From assembly GCA_000165345.1 (NCBI GenBank), contig CM000434.1, positions 32,001 to 96,000 on the forward strand: DNA of 64,000 nucleotides. The letters are read 5' to 3'. The position numbers and the translations under genes are program-made. Shown piece after piece: positions 5,141 through 53,990 of the stretch; positions within the stretch are counted from its first letter, which is position 1, and every line of letters begins with the position of its first letter. The notes below the pieces were generated by a model. The model ran no database searches, was not told the DNA's origin, and saw only the letters and a list, made by a program, of their open reading frames with translations.

Positions 5141-5230
5141 GTAAGTAAATCAGGACAGGACGAGGATTGGCGGTAAAATAGGTGCAGGTGTCCCGCCATC
5201 CATTAATTGCGCGGCATTGTGAAGTAAGGC
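5141..5230. promoter_or_regulatory. GC-rich island (about 50% GC) with a perfect 9-bp-stem hairpin in the bidirectional intergenic region between the two NHE paralogs.
   Basis: The sequence ggattggcgg-taaaataggtgcaggtgtc-ccgccatcc forms a stem of GGAT(T)GGCGG with CCGCCATCC. It is flanked by gcgcggc, in otherwise more than 80% AT DNA. Confidence 0.35.
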
Positions 5231-8405: not shown

Positions 8406-8414
8406 TTAGGCGGG
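8406..8414. promoter_or_regulatory. TTAGGCGGG motif with an adjacent GGCGGGAAGCCTGCC hairpin.
   Basis: This is one of four TTAGGCGGG copies. The others are at 47141-47149 (+), 14013-14021 (-) and 51558-51566 (-). All lie 150-530 bp upstream of a gene start. Confidence 0.3.
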
Positions 8415-9747: not shown

Positions 9748-10327
9748 ATATTCATTTCTATATTAAAGTTAAATAGACTTCTCAATCTGTAGTCTTAAAT
9801 TATCAAATTGTTTTATTTATATAATTTAATTGTTTGTTAATCTAGTAATAATTCCTCTTTTTTATTTTAATCTATTGTAAGCTACAATGTCAGCTTATTT
9901 ATATAACTTCTCACGGAAATATTTATTTCCTTTTAAAATTCTCTCTCGCTCTTCTCACCAATTCGAAAAATTGTAATTTGCTTCAGTAATTTATGTTCAC
10001 GTAGTAAATCATTAATATAAAAATTAAGATGCGTGCTGGCGCCGGCGCCACACAATTATGGCAAGCCCGGACTAAGTACATCTGAAAATTCAAATTTTCC
10101 CAAAAAAGGAAAAGAATTTCAGGAGATTAAAGGAAGCAAGGATTGATATTAATGGATACAATATATGCAAACTCACTAATCCATTTCTAATTCTTTCTTT
10201 TCCAAAATAAGTTCAGATCAACCAGAACAAATTATTATATTTTATTAATTCTAATTTATGTGTGGAAATAAAACAAGAAATTAAGGTATAAGAGGCAGGA
10301 AAGATTAATTTGTGGACGGTAAAACAT

Positions 10328-13486: not shown

Positions 13487-14051
13487 TTTTTACATAATAA
13501 ACAAAATGAGAAAAAAACTAATTTATATATTCAAAAGGTTCAAAATTTTTTTTCAATATATTTCATTATTAAATTGTCAAATTAATTAAATATTAAATCG
13601 AGTGATGGCTCGTCAGCGTTGAATTTTTTTTTTTTTTTAATTAAAATATAATAAATCAATGCATAAATAAAATGAGTAATAATTATTTAATTAATTTAAT
13701 TTTGTTTTAATTAGTAATCAAAACAAGTTTATTAAATATTTTCAAACATAATTCAAAGTAAAAAGGTAGCACTGCATTTAATATAAAAGATATATTTAAT
13801 TTATTAGGTACTTGGCATTATTCAAGCCTAATTCATTGAATTGATGCCATGTACAGTAAGGACAAATAGTCAATGCTTTAAACTGAAATAGCTACAAAAG
13901 AAATATTTACATGATATATTTTTTGCGATAATTTAACACAATTTTTTCTTGTTTGAATTGTGAAATAGTTTAGATTTAACACTTTGTCATATGGGTCATT
14001 TCCACACAGTGCCCCGCCTAAACACTTGAGAAATAATAAATATGGAGGAAA

Positions 14052-15068
14052 TTAAAATTCGAATTCGCCAATTAAAGTATCAAAGGGGATTTCTTGATTT
14101 GCAATTTGAGCGATTCCATTTCTCAGTTTGACTCTCCATTTTCCTTTTTGGTTTTTTTTTCTGGTATATGGTCTGATAACTTTTTCAAAATGTCCAATAA
14201 TGACGTCACTGCATTCAGGTTCTTCATCGTCTAAGTCAGATACATTCTCAAGATCTGATCCAGGGTCAGATAAAATTTCTTCATCAAAATGATCATTGTT
14301 TCCACTGATCTGACCATTTGTTGTACTATTTTGGTTGTTTGACTTTGATTTATTTTGTTCCTGAAAATTATCTGTTAGGTTATCTTTAGTACTTTCGCTT
14401 TCGCTTGGTGCAACTACATCCCAAGATGCGTCTCCAAACTCATCATCCTCGAATTCATCATTATTATTATTTTCATTTCCATTAGAGTTTTGACATTTTT
14501 CAGTATTGAATTGTTCACAAGTTGTATTTTGTTTTTCTTCTAAAAAAGCATTTCTTTCTTTACCTTCTTCTTCTTCCTTTTCTATGTCTTTTTCATCTTC
14601 ATTTCCAACATATTTTGAATCTGAATCATCTAACTTTGATTTCTTAGAAACCATCTTACAAAAATCATATTCAATATTTAACTCGTTAACATTTCTCATT
14701 TCTTTAGAAGATATTATTGGAGTTGGAATACTTTGAAGTGATCCCTCACTAAATCTTTTATTATTAATTCGATTGTCACAAACTATGATTTCATTACTGT
14801 TAAACTCGCTAATACTATCATTATGATGATTATTAATATTGCCATAATTAATATTATTACTAATTTCACTAATATCGGATTTTTTCGGAACTGATTCAAT
14901 TTTAACAGGTAAAACCCCATCCAATTTAGGAGCAATAACTTCCATCTCTGTCGGTACCCATTCTTGATTACGATCAGATTTCTCATCTTTTGTTACACCC
15001 AAACACAAATCATTTAACTTTGAAATCCACCTGAGTTTTAATTGTTCAAGCATCTCAGGGGTTTGCAA
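14052..15068 (-). CDS. Hypothetical acidic, Asn-rich protein.
   Basis: 338-aa ORF. The middle is a low-complexity N/E/D/S tract (NSNGNENNNNDEFEDDEF...). No recognisable domain. Confidence 0.45.
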   Translation of the reverse strand: MQTPEMLEQLKLRWISKLNDLCLGVTKDEKSDRNQEWVPTEMEVIAPKLDGVLPVKIESVPKKSDISEISNNINYGNINNHHNDSISEFNSNEIIVCDNRINNKRFSEGSLQSIPTPIISSKEMRNVNELNIEYDFCKMVSKKSKLDDSDSKYVGNEDEKDIEKEEEEGKERNAFLEEKQNTTCEQFNTEKCQNSNGNENNNNDEFEDDEFGDASWDVVAPSESESTKDNLTDNFQEQNKSKSNNQNSTTNGQISGNNDHFDEEILSDPGSDLENVSDLDDEEPECSDVIIGHFEKVIRPYTRKKNQKGKWRVKLRNGIAQIANQEIPFDTLIGEFEF

Positions 15069-15490
15069 TCCTCTTGATTTCTCAATTGTGCCTATTTAAT
15101 AGAAAAAAAAAAAAATTGCGAATTATTAATATAATTACATTATTCAAAATAAAATCAATTCAGTTTATATCAACTTACGGTCAATTATCTTTAAATATAT
15201 ATTTAAAGAGTCTACGGAACTCATTCTGCTTTCCCTTATTTCTTACTATTCCCCTATTTTCCTTTTTCAATATTGTTTGTTTCTATTCACACAACAAAAT
15301 TATTTGTAAGCTTATTAATTATCCTTTTTTTTACAATAGTGTATTCACTTCTACCCTAAATATAATTCAATATTCCATTCCCTTCCTTCCAACTCCCAGC
15401 CCTCTTTAATTTCCGTTAAATTAAAAAAAAATTAAAAACTTAATAATACACGTAATTATTTAATATAATTACTAAGAAAATAATATTTCA

Positions 15491-15504
15491 TTTGGCGCCA
15501 AAAC
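15491..15504. promoter_or_regulatory. Candidate E2F-type site TTTGGCGCCAAAAC.
   Basis: A palindromic GGCGCC core with T/A flanks matches TTTSGCGCSAAA. It lies in an AT-rich intergenic region about 430 bp upstream of the minus-strand gene at 14052-15068. Confidence 0.3.
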
Positions 15505-18473: not shown

Positions 18474-19847
18474 TTAATGATGATGATGACGTCCACCAGT
18501 TATTGTAGTTTGAATAATTTCTTGTTGTTGTGAAGCCATTGTTGGTTGTACAACAACATTTCTTATGCAAGTACCATTAGCGTTAAGAGTTGTTCCAGAT
18601 GGGCAATTCAATGTTGATGGAACGATTGATTTACATAATCCTTTATCACCATCAGTATATCCAACTGGACATCCTAATTCACCAGGAACAGTTTGGGTAT
18701 CAAAGCATTTCTTTCTTGGGACTTCCTGAATAACTGGAATTGGTTGTACATATGTTTGTTGAACATATGTTTGAATTGGATAGTATGCATTATGATGATG
18801 ATGATGTGAAACACCTCTCTTTCCTAATCTTCTAGTAATAATTCCAGCTGGCTGATTGAAATTCTGAGATCCTTGTTCATATACATATTGGCTTCCATAA
18901 CCAAGACTCTTAACAGATTGTTGTGGTGAGTTTCTGAGTGAATAGTATTTACCATCATAGAATTCATTTGTTGGCTTTGGGGTTGGGTTTGGACATTCCA
19001 ATTCTGCTGGAACTGTAATAACTTCAACACACTCTCCATTTGCGACCATTGAGCCATTAGCACATCCTAAAGTTGGTTCAGTTGTTGATGTATATAAACA
19101 TCCAAATCCTGTCAAACTTTTTACTGCTCCTTCTGGGCATATCATTTGTGCTGGAACTGACTCACTTCTTGAGCATGTTCTTGAAACAACAGCCTGTGGA
19201 ACAACATAGCTTGTTTGATGATGATGATGTCCATGTCCATGTCCATGATGTGAAGTTGTTGTATATCTAACTGCAGTTGCAGCTGGAGTGCAATCATATA
19301 AAACTTCTCTTACACATCTTTCATTACTAACTAAAGTGAAATCAGGTGATGGACAGGTACTAATTGGGGATACACTCTTTTGTAAGATACATTCATTTTG
19401 CATTTCATTTAAAACTCCTTGCATACATTTCTTGATTGGTGCAACAGTCTTTGAGCCACTGCACATTTGACCGTCAGTTAAAGTAAATCCTGATGGGCAT
19501 ACAGCAACTGGGTCGATCTCAACATTCTTTTGACACATATTTTCACCTACCAATGTATATTCCACTGGACATTTCATGATTGGGTTTGTTGTCTTCATAC
19601 AATTAAAATCGCTCATTAATTCTCCTCCATTCAAGCAGACTCTTTCTGGCATTATCTCCTCTCTAGCAACGCATTGTCTATTTGAATCCAAAGTATATCC
19701 TGTTGGACACACCATTGTTGGAACGTTGACTACGGAGACTGTTGAAACTGCTTGTTGTTGATGATGATGATGATGATCTCCAGCATAACAACTTAGTGGC
19801 AACATTGCCATCATAATAATTGTATTTATCTTTCTTAACGATATCAT
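18474..19847 (-). CDS. Secreted Cys-repeat protein with four His runs and about 13 copies of C-P-x-G-[YF]-T-L-x(5-7)-C.
   Basis: ATG at 19847. The signal peptide is MISLRKINTIIMMAMLPLSCYA. His runs are GDHHHHHQQQ after the signal, SHHGHGHGHHHHQ and VSHHHHHN internally, and a GGRHHHH C-terminus. Repeats include CPTGYTLDSNRQC, CPVEYTLVGENMC, CPSGFTLTDGQMC, CPVGYTDGDKGLC and CPSGTTLNANGTC. Confidence 0.8.
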   Translation of the reverse strand: MISLRKINTIIMMAMLPLSCYAGDHHHHHQQQAVSTVSVVNVPTMVCPTGYTLDSNRQCVAREEIMPERVCLNGGELMSDFNCMKTTNPIMKCPVEYTLVGENMCQKNVEIDPVAVCPSGFTLTDGQMCSGSKTVAPIKKCMQGVLNEMQNECILQKSVSPISTCPSPDFTLVSNERCVREVLYDCTPAATAVRYTTTSHHGHGHGHHHHQTSYVVPQAVVSRTCSRSESVPAQMICPEGAVKSLTGFGCLYTSTTEPTLGCANGSMVANGECVEVITVPAELECPNPTPKPTNEFYDGKYYSLRNSPQQSVKSLGYGSQYVYEQGSQNFNQPAGIITRRLGKRGVSHHHHHNAYYPIQTYVQQTYVQPIPVIQEVPRKKCFDTQTVPGELGCPVGYTDGDKGLCKSIVPSTLNCPSGTTLNANGTCIRNVVVQPTMASQQQEIIQTTITGGRHHHH

Positions 19848-20130: not shown

Positions 20131-20234
20131 TCCACATGAATGCATGCATGTAACGTGCACATCAAAATTTGCATACCGGTATTATGTTTTTTTTTGTTTA
20201 ATATTACTAATAATTACTAATTTGTCCACATGAA
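20131..20234. promoter_or_regulatory. Composite motif cluster: TCCACATGAA...CATGCATG...ACGTG...ATACCGGT plus a second TCCACATGAA.
   Basis: TCCACATGAA at 20131-20140 and 20225-20234, and ATACCGGT at 20173-20180. The cluster is about 280-390 bp upstream of the His/Cys gene start at 19847. The same bipartite motif recurs at four other loci. Confidence 0.4.
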
Positions 20235-24417: not shown

Positions 24418-24951
24418 TTATTTCTTAGAAATGCTTCCAATTTCCTTATCGGCTCCAAGTCCTGACTGATTATAGTTCCTTTTCTTGAATATTTTTGGCT
24501 TTGTATTGTGTATTTCTGGATTGTATCCCATACCTCTTAACATTGCAATACCAAACTTATCTACAGGGATTCGAAAATTATCTTTATTAGTTGAAGAATC
24601 TAGATCATCCTCATTAGTATCGTTGGATGAATTTTTCTTATTTAAAAGTATCTCAATATTATTAACATTCTTGGATGATTTTAATGGGTTTTTGCATTCT
24701 ATTATTAATTCGTCATGTTCATCACCAGATTGTTGTTCGATTTCAGATTGTGTATTTGAAAAAGAAGTAATCAGAGTTCTTTTACATGGGATTGAATCTT
24801 TTTTGTAAGCTCCTTTATTATCAACTCCTGCTGATGTTCCTGTACTTGAATCATTTTCTTCAAAACCCATAATTGAAGAATTACTTTTTGCAACCGAGTT
24901 ATTTTTCTCTGATGGCTTTTTAATTGAAAAACTAAACTTTGAGTTATTCAT
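24418..24951 (-). CDS. G-patch-like protein (Spp2-type, possible splicing factor).
   Basis: C-terminal motif IPVDKFGIAMLRGMGYNPE...NQSGLGADKEIG resembles the Spp2-type G-patch (FGxAMLRGMGW...GLG). The rest is low-complexity. Confidence 0.45.
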   Translation of the reverse strand: MNNSKFSFSIKKPSEKNNSVAKSNSSIMGFEENDSSTGTSAGVDNKGAYKKDSIPCKRTLITSFSNTQSEIEQQSGDEHDELIIECKNPLKSSKNVNNIEILLNKKNSSNDTNEDDLDSSTNKDNFRIPVDKFGIAMLRGMGYNPEIHNTKPKIFKKRNYNQSGLGADKEIGSISKK

Positions 24952-25284: not shown

Positions 25285-25297
25285 ATGGCGCCAAAAC
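25285..25297. promoter_or_regulatory. Candidate E2F-type site ATGGCGCCAAAAC followed by ACGTAC.
   Basis: It lies in the intergenic region between the divergent G-patch gene (start 24951) and the Beclin gene (start 25463). The core is the same as at 15491 and 30553. Confidence 0.3.
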
Positions 25298-25462: not shown

Positions 25463-26794
25463 ATGTTTTTATTAGGACTGGGAAGTAAGAAGATTGAAAA
25501 GCTGGAGGATGATCCGAAAGTAGAAGAAAACATGATTAGATCTTGTTCAAGGTGTGGGAGTTTCTTTGAGGTAGTAAATGATTCAGATGATGAATTAGAT
25601 CCTTCTGAGATTATAAATACTGTTGAATCTGTACATGATATGTTTATAGATTATTTAAGTTTAGAAAAAAGGAATCCTAATAATTTTGAAGACTTTATTT
25701 TACAATTTATGGAAGTTTCTTTGGAGAAGGATAATATGACTCTGAGTAATAAAACTAATGTTGAAGAATCACTTTGTGTGGATTGCATGAATTGTTCAAT
25801 TTCCCAATTTTCTATGGCTTTAAACAAGGAGATAAGTTTATTAGACAAATATAAGGAAATATCAGATTCATTAATTTCATCGGAATGCTATGATGAAGAT
25901 CAAATGGAAGATTCTGAGGTAAATTTTGAACCAACCAGCAAAGAATACTTGGAAATTATGAATATTTACAATGAATTCATAAAGATGGAACAATATAACC
26001 AAGAAAAGACGATAATTAATGACGAAAATGATAATGACGAAATAGATTGTACTGAAACAGATAAAGACATTAAAGAAGGATATGGGAAATGCAGGTTTCA
26101 AGTGATTAATACAATAGAAGTGGATGATATTGTTGAACTCAGACAAAACCAGAATCTCGAATCAAATTTAAAACATGAGTTAATTCAATATGAACTAAAG
26201 AGAGAAGGAATGAAAAACCATCTAGATTTTTTAAGAGGATACCTAGAAAGGTTAAAAAGATCGGATTTTCTGAACTTATCTTTTTATATACAAGTTATAG
26301 AAGGGGGAGCATGTATTAATGGACTTCGTCCTGCACTATTTGAAGCAGATTTTGATAATTGGAATGAGGTGAATGCAGCTCTTGGTGTCTCTGCTATGCT
26401 TTTGTATACTATTTTAGAACGTCACAAACTTCCTTTAAGTATTTACCCAAATGGGAGTTACTCTACTATTAAAGATTCAGAATCTTCAATATGGCCACTT
26501 CATGGTAATACTCTCTGTAATTCAGATTATAACGAATGTACTAACTTTGATAAGGGGATATTATCATTTGTATTTCTTATTGATACAGTATATAATATAA
26601 TTCCAGGAACTAATGAAACTTTACCTTATTCTGTTGATCAAAGAAATGGTACAATTGGAGGTATCAGTCTAAATTTGCTTTTTAATGAAAGAGAATCATG
26701 GAATAGAGCTATGAGTATGAATCTAATTAACCTCAAATGGTTATTAGTTAGATCATCTGAAAGTATTAGGAACAAATTAAACAATGAATCTTAA
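25463..26794 (+). CDS. Beclin-1 / Atg6 (Vps30) autophagy protein.
   Basis: The C-terminal BARA-domain signature ...ACINGLRPALFEADFDNWNEVNAALGVSAMLLYTILERHKLPLSIYPNGSYSTIKDS matches the Beclin ...VEWNEINAAWGQTVLLL... block. There is an N-terminal CxxC (CSRCGSFF) and a central coiled coil. Confidence 0.85.
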   Translation: MFLLGLGSKKIEKLEDDPKVEENMIRSCSRCGSFFEVVNDSDDELDPSEIINTVESVHDMFIDYLSLEKRNPNNFEDFILQFMEVSLEKDNMTLSNKTNVEESLCVDCMNCSISQFSMALNKEISLLDKYKEISDSLISSECYDEDQMEDSEVNFEPTSKEYLEIMNIYNEFIKMEQYNQEKTIINDENDNDEIDCTETDKDIKEGYGKCRFQVINTIEVDDIVELRQNQNLESNLKHELIQYELKREGMKNHLDFLRGYLERLKRSDFLNLSFYIQVIEGGACINGLRPALFEADFDNWNEVNAALGVSAMLLYTILERHKLPLSIYPNGSYSTIKDSESSIWPLHGNTLCNSDYNECTNFDKGILSFVFLIDTVYNIIPGTNETLPYSVDQRNGTIGGISLNLLFNERESWNRAMSMNLINLKWLLVRSSESIRNKLNNES

Positions 26795-27086: not shown

Positions 27087-30000
27087 TTAGACTCTACTGG
27101 ATGCTCCATCATCTACTTCCTCATCAACCATTTCGTCATCGTCATCCTCATCATCATCATCCTCTTCCCCTTCTTGCAAAATTGTATTAATTTGATAATC
27201 TTTAAGCTCAGAATTCTTCATTTCTGGTAAAAAGTCTTCAGGTTCGAGATTCTCGTCCAAATTCAAAATATCGTTTTCACTCTCAACATTTTGTGAATCT
27301 CTGGATGATTCGTTGACTTCTTTTACATTTTGGAATGTACGGTAGCCAAAGTCTGCATGCCTTGTTAAAGGTTTATTTCCTGATGATGGTTGAGGTAATG
27401 TAATAGTATCATTTACATTGTAATTAGGATGTACCTTAACGTAAGTAATTAAGATAGCCTCACTTTCCTCTTCTTGATCATTCTCTGATTGGTTCCTTTG
27501 GCTCATAATCTCCTCCTGGAATGATATATACAAAATCATATCTCTGTGAATCATTCTTTGGATTGCCCTGTGGTACTTTTCTTCCAATTCTCCAAGTTCT
27601 TCTTCACTTTCTGGGTGGTCATACTCCGAAATATGCCATGTTATTAAATCTGTTATCGAGATTTCTGAATCCTTGTTACTTTGGAGCTTATCTACAAATC
27701 TTCTAGCTATTTGGAAATATTCATTGTATCCTATCGTAACATTTGCCTTCTTTTTACTCTTAGATGAAGATTTTATATTCTTTGAAACCCGTGATTCTTG
27801 CGACATTTCAGTATCTTCTCCTTCATCAGAGTCTTGATCATTTTTATCTCCTACTTTCTTAAGTCTATGACTCTTTCCATCCTTGTCTATTCCTGCAAAA
27901 TCTTTCACATTCTCTTCTTCTTCTTCTTCTTCTTCATCCCCATCTTCATCATACTCATCTAAATCACCCAAGTCTATATCATTATATCTAATCTTACTCA
28001 GAGAACTCTTAAAGATTTGACAAGCTTCTTCTACATGCTCTGGAGTAACTAAATAAGAGAATCTAAGCTTTGCAACGGCTTCAGAAAGTCGAATCAGACT
28101 TTCAAGTTGTCTTACAGTAATCCTCATTGCTTTAGCTCCAGAAGTAGCATCTCCCATTCTGAGAGCTTTGTAAGTTCTGACAAGTATAGTCTTTGCAGCT
28201 GGAGTAATGCAAGGCTTAAATGTTTTTGCATAGGCTATATACTGGTTTAGCTCATCCTTGGTGAGTTGAAGGTTATTAGAATCTGAAAAATTAAGATTAT
28301 CAGCAAATTGCTTTTGATTAAATGAACAATCATTATCCGTATTAGAATTAGATGCTTCATCCTGGGTAACTTCTCTTCCTGATACTTCAGTTGCTTTTGA
28401 ATGCAAGCCAACAATGAATGATGCAAGTACCTCATCATAAACATCTTCTGGATCATCAATCATTACAAAGAAAAGATCAAACCTGGATAAGATAGGGGCA
28501 GAAATCCTAACATTCTGTGAAAGAGTCTTAGATGGATTGTATCTACCACCCACTGGGCTACAAGCTGCCAAAACTGAAGCTCTAGCATTTAATGTAGCTA
28601 ATACTCCTGCTTTAGTTATTGATATAGTCTGCTGTTCCATAGCTTCATGTATTGCTACAACATCTTTATCATCCATCTTATCAAACTCATCAATACAACA
28701 GATACCCTTATCAGCAAGCATTAAAGCTCCAGCTTCTATTACAAAGTCACCCTGATCAGGATCTCTATGAATAGATGCTGTTAAACCAGCAGCAGTTGAG
28801 CTTTTTCCTGATGTATATACAGTTCTGGTAGAAAATTCATTAACAAATCTTAAAATTTGACTCTTCGCAGTGGATGGATCTCCAACAATACAAACATTAA
28901 TGTCTCCTCTCAACTTAATATTATCTTTAGTTCTCTTCTCTACTCCACCAACTAATAAAAGCAATATTCCTTTCTTTAACTGCGAGTAACCATATACATG
29001 TGGCGCAACATATTTAGCAAGCATATTAATTCCATTTGGATGTTGAGAAATTTCCAAAAACTTTCTAAATGAAGTTTCTTGTACATTTAAATCTTTCAAA
29101 TGATCAATCATACCACCTGTATTTGCTTCCAATTCTTGATTTACTTCAATTTCACTATTATTTAATTCATTATTATTTACGATACCTTGGACACCTTGAT
29201 TATGTTGATGATTAATTTGTTCAATAATACGTCCATCATCAGCTGATGCAATAGCATTAACAACTTCAATATGACATGCAAGGAAACAGAGACGATAAGC
29301 TAAATCTCTTACTCCTAAAGATTTAAGTCCACTAATTCCAGAATTATAATATTCATTCTGACTTCTACTTCTGTCTTTATAGACACTTGATGGTATTTCA
29401 CCAGGCTTCATTAGAGAAGGAACGTCAGGGGCAACAATTAACATTCCAGTAAAGATTACTTTATCTCCTGGTTTACATTTATCAACAAAATCACCTCTTA
29501 ATATCACATTCATAGACCTTGGCATTGATCCTGGTGGAATTTCAGTTGCATGTTCTTGAATTCTAAGTTTTTGCCAATCCCCAAAATCACAATTTTCGAG
29601 TCTAAGTTGCCAAGCTGTTCTATTTCCACATCCTTTAGTAGGACATACTGAAGGTAAAGAATATACAAATTGTTGTACTACATTATCTACAATACATCCA
29701 CATATTTCACATTCAAAACATGCTTTAATTAGTTCAGGTCGTACATCAGAAGTTCTTGTAATGGTTCCTCTTAAACTACAAAGTTTTCCAAGTTTTTCAC
29801 ATCTTAAAGTTCTTAAACTTTCTATCCATCTTAATCCATAGAAAGAAGCAGTATAGCCTCCTAATCCTGGATCTAATCTTCCATCCCCTCTTTCATCACC
29901 TATAGTAAAACTTTTGCAGAAACTGGTTACTAAGTTATCTATTGCTTGTTTATATTCACCATATTGTTCAGTTAAAGCAAGTAACATGGTTTGTCCGCTA

Positions 30001-30248
30001 ATTAGTCCATTATTATTTCTCTCTTCTTCTATATTTGAATTATCTCCTGAATTATTATTATCAATCGAAAAATTTAGCATATCATTTACATCAATATAAA
30101 CAGTTTTTGTTAATCTGGATGATAATAATTGTTCAACTTGTCTCACATACTTAGGTATACCTTCTTCATTCTTAAATGTTCTTAGAAAGTGTAGAAATGA
30201 TCGCTCCAAAGCAGGAGGAAATGAATTAAATGTTACATTATTAGACAT
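27087..30248 (-). CDS. mcm6: DNA replication licensing factor MCM6.
   Basis: It has Walker A (GDPSTAKSQ) and the MCM box ICCIDEFDKMDDKDVVAIHEAMEQQTISITKAGVLATLNARASVLAA. The MCM6-specific C-terminal block is RITVRQLESLIRLSEAVAKLRFS. There is a Zn-finger CFECEICG...C..C and a long acidic tail (DDDDEDDDDE). Confidence 0.9.
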   Translation of the reverse strand: MSNNVTFNSFPPALERSFLHFLRTFKNEEGIPKYVRQVEQLLSSRLTKTVYIDVNDMLNFSIDNNNSGDNSNIEEERNNNGLISGQTMLLALTEQYGEYKQAIDNLVTSFCKSFTIGDERGDGRLDPGLGGYTASFYGLRWIESLRTLRCEKLGKLCSLRGTITRTSDVRPELIKACFECEICGCIVDNVVQQFVYSLPSVCPTKGCGNRTAWQLRLENCDFGDWQKLRIQEHATEIPPGSMPRSMNVILRGDFVDKCKPGDKVIFTGMLIVAPDVPSLMKPGEIPSSVYKDRSRSQNEYYNSGISGLKSLGVRDLAYRLCFLACHIEVVNAIASADDGRIIEQINHQHNQGVQGIVNNNELNNSEIEVNQELEANTGGMIDHLKDLNVQETSFRKFLEISQHPNGINMLAKYVAPHVYGYSQLKKGILLLLVGGVEKRTKDNIKLRGDINVCIVGDPSTAKSQILRFVNEFSTRTVYTSGKSSTAAGLTASIHRDPDQGDFVIEAGALMLADKGICCIDEFDKMDDKDVVAIHEAMEQQTISITKAGVLATLNARASVLAACSPVGGRYNPSKTLSQNVRISAPILSRFDLFFVMIDDPEDVYDEVLASFIVGLHSKATEVSGREVTQDEASNSNTDNDCSFNQKQFADNLNFSDSNNLQLTKDELNQYIAYAKTFKPCITPAAKTILVRTYKALRMGDATSGAKAMRITVRQLESLIRLSEAVAKLRFSYLVTPEHVEEACQIFKSSLSKIRYNDIDLGDLDEYDEDGDEEEEEEEENVKDFAGIDKDGKSHRLKKVGDKNDQDSDEGEDTEMSQESRVSKNIKSSSKSKKKANVTIGYNEYFQIARRFVDKLQSNKDSEISITDLITWHISEYDHPESEEELGELEEKYHRAIQRMIHRDMILYISFQEEIMSQRNQSENDQEEESEAILITYVKVHPNYNVNDTITLPQPSSGNKPLTRHADFGYRTFQNVKEVNESSRDSQNVESENDILNLDENLEPEDFLPEMKNSELKDYQINTILQEGEEDDDDEDDDDEMVDEEVDDGASSRV

Positions 30249-30552
30249 CTTTTTCTATTTCCTTTCAGTTGAGGAGAAATAGCAGTAATAACAGAAAAAA
30301 AACAAGATTTCTTTTTGATCTTTCAATATTTTTCTCACTAAGCTTTGTTTTCACGTTTCTTCTAGTTTGATTTCCCACCTTTCTATTATTCAAATCTTTT
30401 TCTTTATGCTTTGATTCTCGAATTTATTTACAATATTTTTCGCAAGCTATTCTCACAATTATACCTATATGCACTAATACTTGCCTTTGCAAATATTTAT
30501 CTCAGCATTAATTTAAATTTAATTTATTTTACCGATACCTTTTTCCCCACAT

Positions 30553-30563
30553 TTGGCGCCATA
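30553..30563. promoter_or_regulatory. Candidate E2F site TTTGGCGCCAT about 305 bp upstream of the MCM6 start codon.
   Basis: TTTSGCGC matches the E2F consensus. MCM genes are canonical E2F targets in animals and plants. It is the only GC-rich element in this promoter. Confidence 0.4.
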
Positions 30564-30863
30564 TTAGTAATTTAAGATTCTATTTAATGAGGTAGATATA
30601 TAATTTTGATTTTAATTAAAAATAGGTGTGAACTCATTTTTCTTTTTTTTTTTGAATAAATTTGATTTTTTTTTTCTGGGATGAATTTTGAGTTTTACAA
30701 TTCTTTTTTAGTTGATTTTGTTTAGAACTGAATAAATTCTTATTTTTATAAATTTGATAATATAATATTAAACCGGGATATTGATATGATTTAACAAAAT
30801 AATTTCAATTAAAATAAAAATTATTAGTAGAAAATTTTTAATTTTTTTTTGATGATTAAATCA

Positions 30864-32404: not shown

Positions 32405-32473
32405 TCCACATGAAATAATTTTTTATATACCGGTCAAAAATTTACACGTAAAATTGTATTTTTCAATACCGGT
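32405..32473. promoter_or_regulatory. Composite motif TCCACATGAA-N12-ATACCGGT, followed by ACACGTAA and a second ATACCGGT.
   Basis: 32405-32414, 32427-32434 and 32466-32473. It lies about 330-400 bp upstream of the DGAT2-like ATG at 32806. Confidence 0.4.
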
Positions 32474-34228: not shown

Positions 34229-37200
34229 TCAATAAATATCACCAAAATCTATATTCAATAAACGAGAATGTCTTCCATAGCCATACTCATCTTCAATTCC
34301 TTTCTTCTTTATTGCATTCATTGATATACTGGTAGTCTTTCTGTTCTCATTATTATTATTATTATTATTATTACTTGTAATATTACCACAAGATCTTATT
34401 ATATCTTCATCATTTGGTATCTTTCTTTGAAGAGAAACTATGTGATCACCTAAAGATAAAGCAATACCTTGTGTCCTACTTCTTATGCGAACTGTTCCTG
34501 TTATCATCATTTTTGGCTCCTTTTCTACTCCTTCTCTTTGATTATTACTAACCAATTGTTTTTCTAAACTTATATTAACTAGAGCATCCTCTCCAAAAAT
34601 ACTTCTTGCATACAAATTTGTAGCAAAGAAACTTGACTTCTTATCCATCATTATTAAATGATTTGAATTATCACTCTCATTATTATTATCATTATTATTA
34701 TTACTAGTATTAGTATTACTACTCTTATAAGTACCGATATTTATACCGGTACCATTACCACCAATCATCATCATCATCATACTTTCAATACTACTATAAC
34801 CTACCAATGATAATTTAGTTTCTTTGATCAAATATTTTAAAAATTGTATAAAAGAGTCACAACTTGTATGTATTGGAATTTTATTTTCCCATTCAAATTC
34901 TGACCATAATTGTCTAAATAATGGACAAGGAATATTTGAATTAGTAATGAAATCAATCAAATCTATACTAATTTCATTCAATACCACAATATCATTCAAA
35001 CCTAATAATTGAGATGATGATGATGATACTGCTCCGGATCCTATTCCTCCTCCTAATCCATCATTTTGAGAATTTTTGGTTTGAAATGTAACAAAACCAA
35101 ACAATATTCCAGTCTCAATAGATTTTACTTGTGCAACAGAATAAACATGAATAGTATTTCCAGGATCTAAATGATTAATATTTTGTGGTTTTTCTATTAC
35201 TCTTAAATTTCCATAAGGATATAATTCAATTTGTACGTTTTGAACTGCTTTATAACTTTGATTAGTTACTATCAATTCTAATAATACATCTTGATGTTGT
35301 ACTTGAAGTATTGCTTCTATGTAAATTGGATCACTTAAACCTGTTATTGAATATATTCTTTTAGATGTATTAGATTGATCAATACTTCCTTTTTTTCCAT
35401 TATTCGAATTTTTTATATTTAAAGGATCCATTACCATACTATCATCAAAACATTCAAATTCATCATCATCATCATTAATCTGTGTTATATCCACATTATT
35501 TGAAAATACTTTTTCTCTAAATTGTCTAAAATTAACAACATTATATGGAAATCTTCTTGAGGAATTCTTATTTAAACGTTTATTCTCTTTAAATAACTCT
35601 CTCAACTTCATTCCACCATTAATTCCTCCTCCAAGTTCAATTTCATTCCCTTCAATTCCTTGAAACTTTGGAAATAATTTCCTTCTTAACATGATTGTTC
35701 TTTTACTTAATCTAATCAATTCCAAATCTTTAAGATCTTTTTCATTTCCTAATTCTTCTTCATTCTTTTTCAATTGATCCAAATCATTGTAAATTGATTT
35801 AAGTAAAATATAACAATGACTTAATCTATGAGTTGNATCNTNCNNNANNCCNCCANNNNTNTGNTCATTTAAACAATNNNNTAANNAGCANNCNNTANTN
35901 TNAANANNCTTNTTAAANGTANNTANNNCTAAATNCAANATATTTTCTTCNTNCTTATTTTTTCCTTGTTCATCTTTAATTCCAATATTATTAGAAAAAC
36001 ATAATAATTTTATTAATGAAACTCCAATACTTGCAATTAAAAGTAAATCTTCATCTCTAATAATAATATTTCTCAAGTTATTAGTAGTAGTAACTCCAAT
36101 ATTATAACAATTTCCACCTTCAATACCTGTTGAAGAAGAATTCAATTGGGAATTACTAGTTCCTAATAAATTTGTAGAATTCATATTATTATTAGCACCA
36201 TAATATCCATCAACATTACATTCCAAATCCTGAGTTGCATATGTTCCATCNTCCANNNNNNCNNNTNNNGTCNACTNNNTTTGTCATGNATAAGTATTTC
36301 CTACTCCTACCCCTCCTCTTTTAGCAATCTTATCATTATCAATAAAACTATCATTATTAGAATTATTATTATTATCATTATAATCATAATCATCATCATC
36401 ATTGTAATTATCATTTCCCATTAAACTTTGACTAGCTCTTCTATTTGGATGATTTCTTATTTTAATAGGTAAAGGTTCCAAAGAATTGTAAATTACATTA
36501 ATAATATCAATAATCTTTCTTTTATCATTTCCATATTCACATTCACTTAAAATCCATAAACAAGTTCTTAATGGTCTACTGAATTGTATTAATGATAAAT
36601 GAATTATTAATTGATCAACAATTTCATATTGATATTCTGAATAATTAACAACCATTTCTCTAAGAAATTGAATAATTTCATTAACAATAATAGGATTTGA
36701 ATTGGATAAAAATGTCATCATTGAATTAATCATAGGCTTAAAAGTAATTTTATGGTATTTTCTTGTAATCTCATGTAATGCTTTAATTAATATTAACTGA
36801 TAATTTTGAAATTGTTGAAAATCAGATAATTTCCCTCCTCCATAATTCATTGTTCTTAATCCACCAAAAGCTTCTGCTCCTCCCATTCCAAAACTATTAT
36901 CATCATTATTATTATAGTAATTAAAGTCAATATCTGCAGTAAAATGATAAGTTTGATTAAATTCATGATTACCAAATCCAGCAATATTATGATGATGATG
37001 ATGAACAGAGTTATTATTACTACTTCCATTATCATTAACATTATTATTATTATTATTATTATTACTATTGTTATTACTATTAAACTTATAATTTTGAAGT
37101 GAAATATCTTGTAAATGTTTTAATAGAAATTGAAATATATCCAAACAATTATTTTTAGTTAATAATGATGACAACACAATTTGAATAACTTTAATCTGTA

Positions 37201-38371: not shown

Positions 38372-38794
38372 ATTATTATATATTTGATATATTATTCTTT
38401 CTTTTATATATTAATAATAAATTTTAATCTTCAAAAAAGAAAGAAAATTCTCATATATAAATATTTATATTTAAAGAGGATGAAGATTTAAATTAAATTG
38501 ATTCCAATTTAATTCAATAGTTTTTCTTTAATTAAAGAAAAAAAAAAAACTTCACACCCCTCTTTATTAGAATAAATTTGATTACTTTTTTCCTTTCTTA
38601 AAATAATAATTTATATATATTTATTTATTCTTGCATTTTAACTTGAATAATTAATTCTTTATTCTAAATATAATTATTGCTCTTTAGTAATTTTCTTTCT
38701 TATATTTATTATTAAATATTATACACGTAATAAATAAATGATTAAAATCAGGCGGGCCAAGCTGGCGCCTGTGAGGACTGTGGGGGAATATAAA

Positions 38795-42530: not shown

Positions 42531-43253
42531 AGAAATTTGTCCATTTCTTCATATTATATATATGCAATATAAATATAATATATTTAATTATTTATTTAAA
42601 TAGTAGTTTATTTTGATGAAATTTAACTTTTTTCGAAATATAAAATTTATTATATAAATTTGACCATTTTACTATTTTACGATACCTTATTCTTGAATTT
42701 TTATTATTATTTTGAATTTCTTCATTTTTTTTTAATTCTGATTTATTTCTAATTAATTTTTTTGTTTAAACTATTATTATGTTTTTAATTAAATTCAAAA
42801 TAATAATAAAAAAAATTCAAGATCTTTTCTTTACTCCAATTATATTAATTAATTTTTATTCATTATTTAATTTTTTTCTTAAAAATCAATGCAATAAGCC
42901 ATAAACATGCAATGCATTTTTTTTTGTTTAATTTTTACCCTCCCCCCAATTTAACATACCTAATATATTATTCTCTTATATAATAATTTGACCAAAGTTT
43001 TGGCGGGCTGACCATTAATTTTTTTTTTATTAATATTTTTTTTAATGATTTAAAGTTATCCTCACTGAAAAAGACCAAATTTGTGTTTGATTAAAATAAT
43101 TAAATATAGATTCTTCAATAATGGGAATTAAGAAATGATATATTATTATTTCTTGCTCACTTGAATTCTTAATGCATTAAGAATTTAAATTTTGAATAAA
43201 AGCAAAAATAATATAAATTTTAAAGAGAATAAAAAAAGTGAGTGAGATGATAA

Positions 43254-45316: not shown

Positions 45317-45345
45317 TCATGTGGACAATATTACATAATACCGGT
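45317..45345. promoter_or_regulatory. Composite motif TTCATGTGGA-N11-ATACCGGT-GCATGC, with the first half inverted.
   Basis: It lies about 200 bp upstream of the ATG at 45540 and is flanked by CATGCAAAAAAAA and TGCATGCAAAAA repeats. Confidence 0.4.
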
Positions 45346-45539
45346 GCATGCAAAAAAAAAAAAAAAATGCAAAAATGCAAATGAGTGATATGAAAAGGAA
45401 AATAATTAAATAATAAAAAAAAATAACAATAATTTAAAAGTCCCCTTTTTTAATATTAAAAGAGGAAAGAAATAAAATATCATTTTTTAGATTGATATAG
45501 ATAATTTTCTAGGAAAGATATTTCAAGTAGAAAACAAAG

Positions 45540-46537
45540 ATGAAACTCAAGTATATTTCCAGTGGAATTCTAATAATAATCAGTTTATTTGGAAATTCTT
45601 ATCAAGTACAATTAAATTCAAAAGCTAAATCGGAATTTCCTTTAGCACTTGCAACCGGAATTCTTGGTAGTGTTGCTGAATCCATTAAAAATGGACCAAT
45701 TGGAGGAGCACTCATGATTCCTGTAAGTTTGGTTCAAAAATATTAAAAAAACAAGTTAAATTAATATTTATTTTTTAAAAAAATTATAGAAGGATAGAGT
45801 ACAAGGACCTTATGATGATTTATCAGAAGATCTAAATACCGCAACCACTGATATTAGATTGGAATATGAATCAGCAAAAAGAAGGATTTCCAAGTTTAGA
45901 GATGAGTTAATGGGGCCTGTTGATGAAGTACTACAAACTAAATTGGCTAGTAAGACTCAGGTATGTTATAATATTGTTTATAATTTCAATTTAATAATAA
46001 ACAATTTTAGTTAATGAGCAGATTAGAATACGTCGGGAAACTACTTAGAGCAGCTTATGATCAAGCTCATCCAGGTAAGTTATTGATAAAAATTAAAATT
46101 TTAACAAATATTAATATACCAATTTTTACAGATAAGGCTGGATTACCAATTGTATTAGTACAGAAGACATCAGCTGATGAAATGTTGTATCCACCAGAAG
46201 GATCAGATTTATCAGAATGTGCTGCTTCTGTCATTGAAGAAGCCGATGAAGAAATTGAGTTATTGGTAAGTTTTAAATTAACAAAATTTATATATTAATA
46301 ATTAATAATCACTTTTTAACCAATTTCTATATTTTTTTTTCTCAAAATGATTAACAGAGTCCACCAGATGTTACCAATCAAAATGAAATTCTTGATCAAA
46401 TGGATGATCAAGAAAGATATGAATATAGTTCAAATATGGCAGAATTCTTCAATCAAAAAGCTAATGCACTTAAAGAAGAACTTTCTAGTTCATTAAATAC
46501 TTGGGTTAACAATCAACTCATTCCAAGAAATGCATAA
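45540..46537 (+). CDS. Small secreted protein of about 243 aa encoded by 5 exons: join(45540..45722, 45790..45960, 46011..46074, 46132..46265, 46358..46537).
   Basis: Signal peptide MKLKYISSGILIIISLFGNSYQ. All four introns are GTAAGT/GTATGT...YAG, about 50-90 nt long and more than 85% AT. The exons are GC-richer than surrounding genes. The product is acidic and helical (...EYESAKRRISKFRDELMGPVDEVLQTKLASKTQ...). Confidence 0.65.
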
Positions 46538-46824
46538 TTATGATTAATTACCTTAATATTACTAATTAATTTCATTATTAATGAATTATGAATTTGAAGA
46601 AAAAGGGTAATGAGAAACTTTTATGAACAAGACAATAAATTATTTATAAACAAGTCGTCCATCAAATATAATCACAAAAAAAAGAAAACAACTCTTCATA
46701 TTCCCTATCTTTGTTATTCTTTCATTTTTTTTGATAATTTTCATTTATATTATAAATTCATATTGCTAGTAATATTATTATTCACTATTAATATTTATAT
46801 TTCTTCTATTTTTGCCTTATCAAA

Positions 46825-46893
<69 letters not shown>

Positions 46894-47624
46894 ATAATCT
46901 AATAAAACTATTTTCACATTAATAAACTAAAGATCAAAAAAATAAAGAAATTAAACAAAATCGTCATTAATATTTTCTCACTTGAAAAAAAAAAGTGCAC
47001 ATTTTAGCGCCAATTAGAATTTTAATTATTTGATGAATTTGTGTGATGTGCTGTTAATTAGTTTAAACGAATTTATTTAATTAAATTGAAATGGCGCGCA
47101 AACTTTATTGAGTATTTCCATGTAATGCTATAAAATAGTTTTAGGCGGGAGACTTGCTAATTACTGTTAAAGTCAGGAAAAATGAAGGCAAAAAAAAAAT
47201 AATAATAAAATTTACAAGGGGAAAAAGCTGTTAATTACAATATTTATGTAGTTAATAAATAAAAGGTTTAGTGATCAAATTGATAAAAAAGGAAATCGAG
47301 GAGGAAAGTTGTAAAATATAGAACTTTTTATACTGAAAATATTAACATACAAGTTAAATAATAATTAAAACAAAAGAAAAAAATTGCTTCTTTTGATAAT
47401 TGAATTATTCATTCGATTGGTCTGGTAATGGAATAAATTTAAAAGAGTGAATGGGAATAAAGATTATTTTATTACATTGAGATTGATAGTTTTTTAAACT
47501 ATTTCAAATTTTTTAAATTTGAAGAATTGAAATAATTATATTAAAAAATAATATAAATATTGATTCAATTCATCATCTTATAAATCATTTAATAAAATAA
47601 TTTGAATTATATTTGGAAAATAAA

Positions 47625-50051
47625 ATGTGGTATTTTGGAATATTCACAGCTTTATTATCATCCATTTTGGGTGGATTAGGCGATAATTTGATTAGATTGA
47701 GTTTTACTTTAGAAGAAGAGTTAAACCATAAAGAAAGAAGACCAGTTATTTTAAGACCAATTTGGATATTAGGTGTACTTTTTTCGTGTATATTAAATGC
47801 AATATTAATAATAATTAGTTTAAATTTTGCATCAGCAATGATAGTAACTCCATTTTCTGGCTTACATATATTTTGGAGTATTATATTTAGTAAGTATATT
47901 TTAAATGAAGAAATAAAATCAAGGCATTATAAAGGTACAGGTTTGGTAATTTTTGGATTATTATTTATTATATTATTTGGTATCAAAGATGTACCAGTTT
48001 ATAATGTACATGAACTCGGTATATTATATTCACAACCAAAATTTGTTTTATATTGCTTTGTAAATATTTCATTTATATTAATTTGTACATATTTATCATT
48101 TTTTGGACTGGATGGGACTGAAGAAAATAAATACAAGAATGAAATAAACATAAATAATACATTATCAAATAATAAAATTGAAAATAATAATATTGAGCAA
48201 AATGATAATAATATTAATAGAAAATCAATTAAAGATATTATTATTTTAAATAAAAATACTTTACATTTAAAAATTTCGAATTTGAGAGATTATTTAAGTA
48301 AAAGTAAATATATCGAATACGAAAAGAATGTTTCTGTAATGGATAACTCAGATTTAAATTATAATTCTAATGAAAATGTAATTAGAACAATGGATATAAA
48401 AAATGATAATATTATAGGTGATGGATATATGAATAGTAATTCTGATATTAAATATGGATTTGGAAGAGAGAATAGTATATATGAAAGTAATAATGTGGGA
48501 TTTTATAATAAAATATTGAATTATATTAATAAGATAGAAAAAAGAATTGATATAATTAATTCATTATTTATTGAATTAACAAAAGGATTCCCAAGAGTTG
48601 AGATATCAATACCAATTAAAAGATTTTGTATTTGTTCAGTATCAGGTCTTATAGGAGGATATACAAATGTTCTTGTACAGAATTTGATACAAATAATATT
48701 AATAGATGGAGTATATACTCTAATTCATAAATTAACATATCAACTTTTAATTATGATACTTATTACAGGCTCAATACAATGGGCATTTTGGAATACTGCA
48801 TTATCAAAATATCAAGCAATTTTTGTTGTACCTATAGTTAATTCAGTATTAATTGCATCCAGTGGGTTTTGTAATTTAATGCTTTATTATGACAATCAAT
48901 ACGTATCAAATTCACTTTTGGGGATATTTTTTAAGATGAATTTTCTACTTGGACAATCTCTTATTTTAGTTGGGATTTATATTATAAGCAGAGCAAATAG
49001 AACCATAGTAAATGAAAATAATAACTTGGATAATAATGATATTAATAGTAATTCAGTTAATGAAGAGAATATTTTTGATTTTAGTGAAAATTCTCAAACA
49101 TCGGATCCAATAAATAATAAACTTTATTTATATTTAGAATCAAAATTTTCTAATTTTGCTGATATTACCAGTTTTTTTAAAGCTAAAAAAGAGAAAATAA
49201 GTTCTTCTTTGGAAAGCCTTCTTGGACTATCTAGAAACCAAAATTTATCCAATAATCATTCAACTTCTTCGTTACCTAACACTAAATATTTGAAAAATAA
49301 TAATCAATTCTATATTAATAATACTATTATTCTTCCTCAAGAAGAATATGTTGATGGTCAATCTACATGCATTCATGTGGATAATTGTCAGGCGGCAACT
49401 GCCAATACCGGTATTCAAGTAGAAAAATCTCAAATTAATGTGGAAAAAAATTATTTATCATCCAATAATAATATTAACCATTTAAATGACCAAGAAGAAA
49501 TGGATATTGTAAGTCAGCAAATTATTATGCCAATAAATACAGAGTATTCTTTGAATACTTTAGGACAACAAGAAAATATTACTGATACTGACTATAACAA
49601 AAAATATGGAATTGAGTTAGAATCATATGTTTTGGATGAGTATGATATTGATGATTTTGAGATTCCTTTTTCAAATCAAGATTATACAGGAAGAGAAGCA
49701 ATGATTTTACAGAATATGGGAGGAAATTATCAATATGAAGATTATGTCAATGAACAAATAATTAATACTAGTTCAATGCTTAGTTTTGGGGATGATATAT
49801 TGGAAGAAAATATTACACAGAATTATTATGAAAGCGACTTAATGGCAACTAAAGAAACTGAATATAATGAGGATTTTACTACTAATAATCATAGTCATGC
49901 AGTCAATTCAGGTTTCAGTCATAATATTCAAAGCAATGAAACTGAAGTTAATATAACAACTAGTGATTTAAAGTTTGATTGTAATCCAAGTCTTTCAACA
50001 TGTTCAACTAATTCTACTGTACTAAATTCCTTTATTACCAATATTTTATAA
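47625..50051 (+). CDS. NIPA-family (DUF803) Mg2+ transporter with a long Asn-rich central insert and C-terminal extension.
   Basis: The N-terminal half AMIVTPFSGLHIFWSIIFSKYILNEEI is comparable to the NIPA block [27 protein letters not shown]. The second half ...CSVSGLIGGYTNVLVQNL...IQWAFWNTALSKYQAIFVVPIVNSVL has the NIPA topology. The last about 350 aa are low-complexity. Confidence 0.7.
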   Translation: MWYFGIFTALLSSILGGLGDNLIRLSFTLEEELNHKERRPVILRPIWILGVLFSCILNAILIIISLNFASAMIVTPFSGLHIFWSIIFSKYILNEEIKSRHYKGTGLVIFGLLFIILFGIKDVPVYNVHELGILYSQPKFVLYCFVNISFILICTYLSFFGLDGTEENKYKNEININNTLSNNKIENNNIEQNDNNINRKSIKDIIILNKNTLHLKISNLRDYLSKSKYIEYEKNVSVMDNSDLNYNSNENVIRTMDIKNDNIIGDGYMNSNSDIKYGFGRENSIYESNNVGFYNKILNYINKIEKRIDIINSLFIELTKGFPRVEISIPIKRFCICSVSGLIGGYTNVLVQNLIQIILIDGVYTLIHKLTYQLLIMILITGSIQWAFWNTALSKYQAIFVVPIVNSVLIASSGFCNLMLYYDNQYVSNSLLGIFFKMNFLLGQSLILVGIYIISRANRTIVNENNNLDNNDINSNSVNEENIFDFSENSQTSDPINNKLYLYLESKFSNFADITSFFKAKKEKISSSLESLLGLSRNQNLSNNHSTSSLPNTKYLKNNNQFYINNTIILPQEEYVDGQSTCIHVDNCQAATANTGIQVEKSQINVEKNYLSSNNNINHLNDQEEMDIVSQQIIMPINTEYSLNTLGQQENITDTDYNKKYGIELESYVLDEYDIDDFEIPFSNQDYTGREAMILQNMGGNYQYEDYVNEQIINTSSMLSFGDDILEENITQNYYESDLMATKETEYNEDFTTNNHSHAVNSGFSHNIQSNETEVNITTSDLKFDCNPSLSTCSTNSTVLNSFITNIL

Positions 50052-50784: not shown

Positions 50785-51711
50785 TATTCCCCTTTTTACT
50801 ACTAACAACAGATTTTTTTTTTAAAATCCCAATACACAATTCCTTTTTTTTTTTCTCCCTTAACTTTATTCTAAGTAGTTATTAATTATATCACTCAAAT
50901 CTGAATATCTTTTTTAAGTTAAATCAATATTCCTAATTTACCGTATATCTGCTCAAATGTAAACAACTTATTTAAAAGTTTCTTTTTATACTTAATAAAT
51001 TTGATTAATCCACAGATTAATAAAGAAAAGAAAATCAAGGCTTTTTTTAATTATTAATATATTCTTTGAAAATAGAAACGAAAAAAAATGTTAATATTGG
51101 TAGTAATATTAGTGCTAGTAATAGAAATAGCAGTGTAATGAACAGTGGTAATAGTAATTACAGTATTATTTTATTACTATTAGTAGTGCAGTTTTCCTGG
51201 TATAAATATTAATAATAAAAGTAATATTTATCAAGAAGAAGGAAAAAAAACTCGGATTTACAGTTTTATTTGGTTTTAGTTGTTTAACTATTCTCACCAA
51301 ATAATTAATGTAAAATTTGTATTTTAATTTTATTGATTGAAAAAAAAAAATACAATTAATTCAAGTTTCTAAACCCTCAGTAATTAAAGAACCAAAATCT
51401 TTTCAAACTGACTACTCTCCATTCATTTATTAGATCTTTTCTTCTTTTTTTTTTTAATAAATATAAATAAAATAATAAATTTAATTATTTTATTTTCTCC
51501 ATTCTGCACACAAAGATAACACGTAATTATTACTAATATAATTTTTTCATTCACTTTCCCGCCTAAATTTTTACTATTTTTTTTTAAGAAAATTTATGAG
51601 ATATATATTGTGGGACAAAAGTAATAATATATAAATACAATAAATATATTTTTGAAATTAGTATCGAATAAAAAAAGAAAGGAAATAAAGAAGAATTATA
51701 TTTTGATTATA

Positions 51712-53930: not shown

Positions 53931-53990
53931 TTTTCAATTGGTAATTTTAATATATCTCTATAATTTTTATTTAATAACCATNNNNNNNNN

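Follow-up and report, generated by a model that had tools for sequence, protein, structure and literature searches.

MCM genes are classical E2F targets, and the occurrence of an E2F-like site a few hundred base pairs upstream of an MCM6 gene raises the question whether such a site belongs to a switch dedicated to replication or to an element of more general use. In a window of 64,000 nucleotides, the whole stretch of DNA that has been analysed here, an earlier note had read a site upstream of MCM6, together with similar sites upstream of further genes, as a conserved E2F/DP-type cell-cycle regulatory element. The question of E2F/DP matters because no apicomplexan genus other than Cryptosporidium, to which the DNA is assigned below, is reported to have kept these factors (PMC4117751, PMC12246861), with the absence of E2F/DP reported from other apicomplexans (PMC3734150).

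Sequence setting and gene map

The window is AT-rich, with a GC content of about 25%, and the standard genetic code leads to clean long open reading frames, mostly intron-free; the ciliate code (table 6), which leads to spurious overlapping open reading frames, has been rejected. The closest named relatives of the MCM6 protein are found in Cryptosporidium species, the PH-domain and NIPA proteins show 100% identity with C. parvum Iowa II proteins, 7.8 kb of the window DNA is 99.99% identical to CP029785.1, and the length of the region upstream of MCM6, 604 bp, is the value given for cgd6_240 (PMC1779779 Table 1, Mullapudi et al. 2007). From these protein and DNA identities together with the upstream length, the MCM6 gene is identified as cgd6_240 and the window as part of C. 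parvum chromosome 6. Equally, the Cys-rich neighbours match COWP8 (cgd6_200) and COWP9 (cgd6_210) by chromosome 6 gene order, with an upstream length of 603 bp for the gene at 18477-19847 compared to 604 bp listed for COWP8 (PMC1779779).

Pfam supports the identification of MCM6 (27090-30248, minus strand, with the ATG at 30248), TatD (plus strand, ATG at 30853), G-patch (24421-24951, minus strand), Beclin/APG6 (25463-26791, plus strand) and NIPA (47625-50048, plus strand), as well as of further genes including DAGAT, coatomer beta, two Na+/H+ exchangers, PDI, synaptobrevin, Fip1 and others. For the gene at 14055-15224 (minus strand, with the start at 15224 taken from the annotation of L008) Pfam gave no match even at E<=5, a weak match to the TFIIA beta chain was found in the PDB (E=0.15), and TFIIA large subunit is a possible, tentative label for its product. 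A multi-exon gene at approximately 45520-46600 (plus strand), overlooked by the simple listing of open reading frames, comprises at least five coding segments conserved in tblastx comparison (45446-45733, 45793-45972, 46008-46100, 46131-46247 and 46331-46531) and corresponds to an annotated C. ubiquitum gene of 243 aa (L012 1965-3010); its presence shortens the region upstream of NIPA to approximately 1 kb. An intergenic (AAT)n microsatellite of about 65 bp is located at approximately 46826-46890, upstream of the NIPA promoter module. The assembly has a gap of 2.5 kb at 53982-56481 and scattered N at 35836-35953, 36251-36289, 52654-53248 and 56484-56973, some of them within the coatomer-beta coding region, which points to an older or lower-quality C. 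parvum assembly as the source.

The four E2F-like sites

The E2F-like site TTTGGCGCCAT (30552-30562, no strand assigned; core GGCGCC at 30555-30560) is located in the 604-bp intergenic region between the divergent genes MCM6 (minus strand) and TatD (plus strand), 304-307 bp upstream of the MCM6 ATG, in agreement with the distance of about 305 bp given by the earlier note; it is equally upstream of TatD, whose ATG lies 298 bp away. The two near-identical sites that had been reported alongside could be recovered with the same sequences at the same coordinates. At 15491-15504, the first 12 bases (15491-15502) of TTTGGCGCCAAAAC constitute the perfect palindrome TTTGGCGCCAAA with the core at 15494; this site lies between two divergent genes, at an upstream distance of 270 bp from the one at 14055-15224 (minus strand) and of 921 bp from the PH-domain gene. 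At 25285-25297, ATGGCGCCAAAAC, which reads GTTTTGGCGCCAT on the minus strand and has its GGCGCC core at 25287, lies between the divergent G-patch (minus strand) and Beclin (plus strand) genes, at -336 and -176, respectively, a placement that had been suggested from the sequence, with the identity of both genes confirmed by Pfam. The related site upstream of NIPA, a gene likewise identified by Pfam, is present as the variant TGGCGCGCAAA at 47092-47102 (no strand assigned), 532 bp upstream of the NIPA ATG, with its start one base before the position 47093 that had been given. It possesses an SGCGCS core (GGCGCG at 47093) but fails the strict pattern TTTSSCGC, with the AAA offset by one base.

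The occurrence of these words is far above expectation. TTTGGCGCC is found at three sites (15491, 25287 and 30552), all of them in divergent intergenic regions, with four strand-matches versus 0.03 expected and a count of four reached in 0 of 100 dinucleotide-preserving shuffles. TTTSSCGC has five matches in the window versus 0.76 expected, and TTTGGCGCCA is present at 15491, at 30552 and, on the reverse strand, at 25287. A symmetric SGCGCS core is common to all four sites, GGCGCC at 15494, 25287 and 30555 and GGCGCG at 47093, while the combination of a T-rich 5' and an A-rich 3' flank is realized on both sides at 15491-15502 and as one TTT/AAA flank each at 25287 and 30552. The wider flanks of the three perfect sites share 29-41% identity, with 29% expected from composition; as these flanks are unrelated, a dispersed repeat has been rejected.

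Relation to the published C. parvum motif family

The TTTGGCGCC-type sites are members of the published E2F-like family, TGGCGCCA/DTTGSCGCCH and TTTGGCGGGAA, and as such already known for C. parvum. Motif 3, DTTGSCGCCH (114 clusters), and motif 4, TTTGGCGGGAAV (47 clusters), are the most over-represented upstream motifs of Oberstaller 2013 (PMC3734150). The over-representation of an E2F-like motif in the non-coding DNA of chromosome 6 was first noted in Genome Res 2003, as related in Oberstaller 2013 (PMC3734150), and a 2025 review credits Bankier et al. 2003 with the first observation (PMC12246861). The E2F-like motif has subsequently been located upstream of 161 of 200 expression clusters, which peak at any time point (Oberstaller 2014; PMC4117751, PMC3734150), upstream of ribosomal protein genes (PMC3734150, PMC4117751) and, in the summary that PMC3734150 provides of PMC1779779, upstream of some of the replication and glycolysis genes of C. 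parvum. The 604-bp upstream region of cgd6_240 itself was part of the 2007 motif-finding set (PMC1779779).

The binding partner has equally been considered in the literature. Tested ApiAP2 domains do not bind the E2F-like motif (PMC4117751), and for C. parvum two DP genes and two, in one count three, E2F genes have been reported (PMC3734150, PMC4117751, PMC12246861). The E2F genes are cgd1_1570 and cgd6_1430, and the DP genes, with numbers deduced from the cpbgf IDs of a 2025 preprint (bioRxiv 10.1101/2025.01.17.633476), would be cgd7_3650 and cgd8_1850. With two E2F and two DP proteins reported to be encoded (PMC3734150, PMC12246861), the lack of E2F/DP homologues, which the earlier note had named as evidence against its reading, does not apply to this organism. 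Most of the E2F-interacting regulators of flies, worms and mammals have been reported absent in C. parvum, and the expression profiles of the E2F genes do not closely track the motif-bearing clusters (PMC3734150). In sporozoite ATAC-seq peaks, the E2F motif is dominant, and over half of them carry the annotation of a bidirectional promoter (bioRxiv 10.1101/2025.01.17.633476).

In the window, the sites at 15491, 25287 and 30552 are exact matches to DTTGSCGCCH, the motif-4-type site TTAGGCGGGAAG (8409-8414, plus strand), 454 bp upstream of the gene at 8863, approximates motif 4, and several further sites in the window fit the GGCGGG variant. The sites are of C. parvum origin and upstream of annotated genes; with the same organism, the same chromosome and the same upstream location, there is no substantive difference between the window sites and motifs 3 and 4 of Oberstaller 2013. 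The likeness to the canonical E2F/DP site TTTSGCGCSAAA, for which PMC3734150 cites the E2F-DP-DNA structure of Zheng et al. 1999, consists of the SGCGCS core, the T- and A-rich flanks, a perfect instance in TTTGGCGCCAAA and an MCM gene as target. In contrast to canonical animal and plant E2F/DP sites, the C. parvum motif precedes the majority of genes, with no special tie to those of S phase. The three perfect sites, all of them in divergent intergenic DNA, also resemble the ATAC-seq E2F peaks, whereby those peaks reflect accessibility in sporozoites whereas the window loci have been compared by sequence alone (bioRxiv 10.1101/2025.01.17.633476).

Enrichment in promoter-bearing DNA

With an E2F-type core defined as SGCGCS or GGCGGG/CCCGCC, the promoter-bearing intergenic DNA, 16.1 kb with 20% GC, has 15 cores versus a shuffle mean of 0.29, an approximately 50-fold enrichment, and none of 300 shuffles reached 15. 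Coding sequence has two cores in 43 kb, with about one expected, and the convergent, terminator-only intergenic DNA of the window has none, a combination of promoter location with depletion elsewhere that is in line with E2F/DP sites. At least one core is present in 11 of the 19 promoter-bearing regions, 160-600 bp upstream of the start codons. The promoters concerned belong to the Na+/H+ exchangers, VAMP, COPB, Beclin, G-patch, NIPA and others, with MCM6 as the sole replication gene.

Beyond the sites already described, the divergent NHE1/NHE2 intergenic region harbours a GGCGGG core (4761-4766, plus strand) and a second core, CCCGCC (5192-5197). Two abutting E2F-like cores form the tandem GGCGCCGGCGCC (10038-10049, no strand assigned), 284-290 bp upstream of the gene at 10328, and the promoter of the VAMP/longin gene has a CCCGCC core (14013-14018, minus strand). 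In the COPB promoter, GGCGGG and GGCGCC cores are paired (38751-38769, no strand assigned), with TGTGGGG at 38779. Divergent intergenic DNA equally holds TTTTGGCGGGC (43002-43007, plus strand), 252 bp upstream of the gene at 43254, and TTTCCCGCC (51555-51563, plus strand), about 70 bp upstream of a plus-strand gene at approximately 51628. Upstream of NIPA, the variant site TTTTAGCGCCAA (47002-47013, no strand assigned) and the motif-4-type E2F-like site TTTAGGCGGGAG (47140-47151, plus strand) are found.

Among the G/C-only hexamers, GGCGGG (eight intergenic and no CDS occurrences) and GGCGCC (six intergenic and two CDS occurrences) stand alone; general GC-rich islands have been rejected, since only these two hexamers are enriched. 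In an unbiased k-mer scan of the promoter DNA, with low-complexity words set aside, GGCGCC/TGGCGCCA ranked top, followed by CCCGCC, GCATGC, which is the known AP2 motif, and ACCGGT.

Conservation across Cryptosporidium

Syntenic loci were available from seven genomes, namely chipmunk genotype I, C. ubiquitum, C. canis, C. bovis, C. ryanae, C. muris and a Cryptosporidium contig of a Logan assembly. The Logan contig (L007, SRR31860986) has a GC content of approximately 45% and an MCM6 that is 81% identical, with the gene order unchanged and the AT-rich block of the MCM6 promoter kept. In a shared 20-kb block, strict cores occur almost only in intergenic DNA and there in three orthologous promoters, COPB, MCM6/TatD and Beclin/G-patch, with 0-3 strict-core matches per genome in approximately 19 kb of coding sequence. 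Besides C. parvum, six of the seven genomes display this three-promoter pattern, with C. bovis devoid of the COPB core.

At the MCM6 site, GGCGCCA is invariant in six further Cryptosporidium genomes, where it occupies the orthologous position (-228 to -312 relative to the MCM6 ATG), and in the MCM6 promoters is always followed by (G)TGTGGG and GGTA(T/A)CG. In the Beclin/G-patch region, GGCGCCATCT is kept in chipmunk genotype I, C. ubiquitum, the Logan contig, C. bovis and C. ryanae, with GGCGCCAACT in C. canis. For the site with its core at 15494, the C. ubiquitum form is TTGGCGCCAAAACA (L009 2662) and the C. bovis form TTTAGCGCCAA (L011 3023), with 270-324 bp between the site and the same downstream gene; C. 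canis was left out of the comparison of site 15491, its contig ending 585 bp upstream of the PH gene. The three elements upstream of NIPA all recur in an 85%-identical stretch of C. ubiquitum, the one at 47002 as GTCGGCGCCTAA at the orthologous position, the one at 47092 as GTGGCGCGTAAAC (L012 3427) and the one at 47140 with GCGGGAGACTTGCT kept. Of the COPB pair, GGCGCC/CCCGCC is kept in C. ubiquitum and C. canis and GGCGCC only in chipmunk genotype I, with related cores in the COPB promoter of the Logan contig and C. ryanae, and C. ubiquitum (L009 1305) also has the VAMP/longin CCCGCC (14013).

In C. muris, the most distant of the species, the 20-kb syntenic block is devoid of strict SGCGCS cores, the MCM6/TatD region included, and the very short G-patch/Beclin intergenic region (L006 14074-14193, 120 bp) contains two AGCGCC variants, TATAGCGCC and AAAGCGCCAT, together with ATACCGGTAT. 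The core is therefore not universal, and the AGCGCC variants of C. muris suggest that the gastric clade may favour another core. Other Cryptosporidium species retain the four cited sites in the orthologous promoters, at matching positions and amid intergenic DNA that has diverged, which excludes chance and a dispersed repeat as their origin and bears out the proposal of a conserved regulatory element. Across most of the genus, purifying selection acts on individual E2F-like sites, also in genomes that differ greatly in GC content.

The MCM6/TatD promoter module

The MCM6 site at 30552 forms the upstream edge of a 142-bp block (30438-30579, minus strand) which in the alignment is near-invariant in five Cryptosporidium genomes of 25-45% GC. 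The block contains the E2F-like site, TGTGGGG, GGTATCGG, a TTTAAATTAATG element, the inverted repeat ATATTTGCAAAGGCAAGTAT (9 bp, around TTGCAAAGGCAA) and TGCAT. The G-box-like TGTGGGG (30545-30551, minus strand), which matches motif 2 of Oberstaller 2013, DTGTGGGG (PMC3734150), directly abuts the E2F-like site and is invariant in five intestinal-clade sequences, with GTGTGGGT in C. bovis and C. ryanae. A TTTGCA element of the block resembles the published CAAT-box-like motif TTTTGCM (PMC3734150). The block is probably a core promoter module of MCM6, or a bidirectional one.

The conservation of the block across 25-45% GC is stronger than usual for a single factor-binding site, a feature that would also fit a small non-coding RNA gene at 30438-30579 in which the GGCGCC site is incidental. 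A structured RNA has, however, been rejected, as the block has no Rfam match either at the gathering threshold or at E<=1, no predicted pair covaries and the folding z-score is -1.24. The composition of the block from catalogued C. parvum promoter motifs, the E2F-like site, the G-box, TGCAT and the TTTGCA element, speaks against an RNA gene as well, which makes this origin very improbable.

Alternative explanations and the role of the sites

Is the MCM6 site part of an S-phase E2F regulon devoted to replication genes, such as animals and plants possess? Its position 307 bp upstream of MCM6, kept in six other species, and the motifs reported upstream of replication and glycolysis gene subsets (PMC1779779, in the summary of PMC3734150) are consistent with such a regulon, but the 11 of 19 promoter regions with a core belong to functionally unrelated genes, and the core at 30555 is equally distant from TatD and MCM6. 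The presence of the motif upstream of 161 of 200 clusters irrespective of their peak time and upstream of ribosomal protein genes (PMC4117751, PMC3734150), as well as the reported absence of most E2F-interacting regulators (PMC3734150), further argue against a regulon of this kind, which we consider quite improbable. Within the window, a small sample from one locus, an enrichment of the target set for cell-cycle and replication genes was not observed, in agreement with the 161 of 200 clusters (PMC4117751). The cell-cycle part of the earlier proposal is thus not upheld, with unrelated genes carrying the cores and MCM6 the only replication gene among them; a replication-specific framing is not supported and too narrow, the element being generic and often located in bidirectional promoters.

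GGCGCC might alternatively be the genuine cis-element of another factor, zinc-finger, Myb or uncharacterised, with a coincidental likeness to E2F sites. Several conserved instances read AAGATGGCGCC/GGCGCCATCT, which resembles the YY1 consensus AAGATGGCGGC, and at 25287 and 30552 just one flank is T/A-rich. E2F/DP binding is moreover predicted, and most regulatory components are without functional validation according to a 2025 review (PMC12246861). On the other hand, it is the symmetric GGCGCCA core that does not vary between orthologues, which is what a winged-helix heterodimer would lead one to expect, and the GGCGGG variant, which occurs in the same promoters, matches the other canonical E2F half-site. 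In addition, high abundance of the motif upstream of genes is reported precisely for the sole apicomplexan genus reported with E2F/DP (PMC4117751, PMC12246861), and the motif is left unbound by the tested ApiAP2 domains (PMC4117751), so that another factor appears unlikely. That the sites are functionless, chance GC-rich words or dispersed repeat copies in an AT-rich genome, has the small sample of one window as its sole point; the observed counts were reached in none of the 100 and none of the 300 shuffles, the flanks are unrelated, the sites are position-conserved where intergenic DNA otherwise aligns poorly and other G/C-only hexamers are not enriched, which renders a functionless origin extremely improbable.

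The assignment of the sites to E2F/DP is the best available explanation and, based on consensus match, distribution, conservation and literature, a rather likely one. Of the earlier proposal, the E2F/DP-type element therefore stands, with the SGCGCS match, the promoter enrichment and the conservation in its favour and binding as a prediction, and its replication framing does not. E2F/DP winged-helix heterodimers would bind the symmetric SGCGCS core, as the consensus match and the literature suggest. The promoters concerned are short, with the sites 160-600 bp before the start codons, and often serve two divergent genes. The bound sites might help to define an active, open promoter during asexual growth, with activation as the presumed effect. 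They would act within compact conserved modules together with other known motifs, which at MCM6 are the G-box TGTGGGG and TGCAT. The E2F-like site would accordingly be a general promoter element for many housekeeping genes, with MCM6 one among them, rather than a replication-specific switch.

A palindrome in promoters without E2F-type cores

A different word, ACCGGTAT, often present as the palindrome ATACCGGTAT, occurs at seven sites (10 strand-matches) in the window versus 0.24 expected. Two of the sites are located in coding sequence (34743-34750 and 49405-49414) and five in promoters (20173-20182, 32427-32434, 32466-32473, 45338-45345 and 60920-60929). The promoter sites fall into regions devoid of E2F cores, those of COWP8 (cgd6_200), DAGAT, the gene near 45520 and the gene at 57843-60377, whereby the two copies of the DAGAT promoter lie 39 bp apart. 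Chipmunk genotype I, C. ubiquitum and C. canis have kept the COWP8 and DAGAT copies, each at the orthologous position. ACCGGTAT is absent among the 25 motifs of Oberstaller 2013 (PMC3734150), and ACCGGT, sought in the literature as a motif of Cryptosporidium, was met with in primer sequences only and in no paper describing it. Within the NIPA coding sequence, ATACCGGTAT (49405-49414) is kept at the same relative position, approximately 1.78 kb into the gene, in C. ubiquitum (L012 5787-5796), which may be due either to constraint on the protein or to an internal element.

Implications for Cryptosporidium promoters

The inference that had been drawn from the raw sequence was sound. As the motif, its E2F reading and its promoter abundance were published in 2003-2013 and reinforced by ATAC-seq in 2025, the sites carry little weight as a discovery. 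Added here to the work of Oberstaller 2013 are the cross-species conservation of individual sites, the composite arrangement with the G-box at MCM6 and the location of E2F-like sites in compact multi-motif modules.

The ACCGGTAT palindrome is the one lead that may be new. A division into two promoter classes can be envisaged, a default class with E2F-like cores in fixed composite modules, conserved in much of the genus (at MCM6, GGCGCCA, TGTGGGG and GGTATCG) and an E2F-less class with ACCGGTAT (COWP8, DAGAT and the gene at 57843-60377), a scheme that is conceivable although rather doubtful. If true, ACCGGTAT would represent an undescribed cis-element of Cryptosporidium, possibly stage-specific and complementary to E2F.
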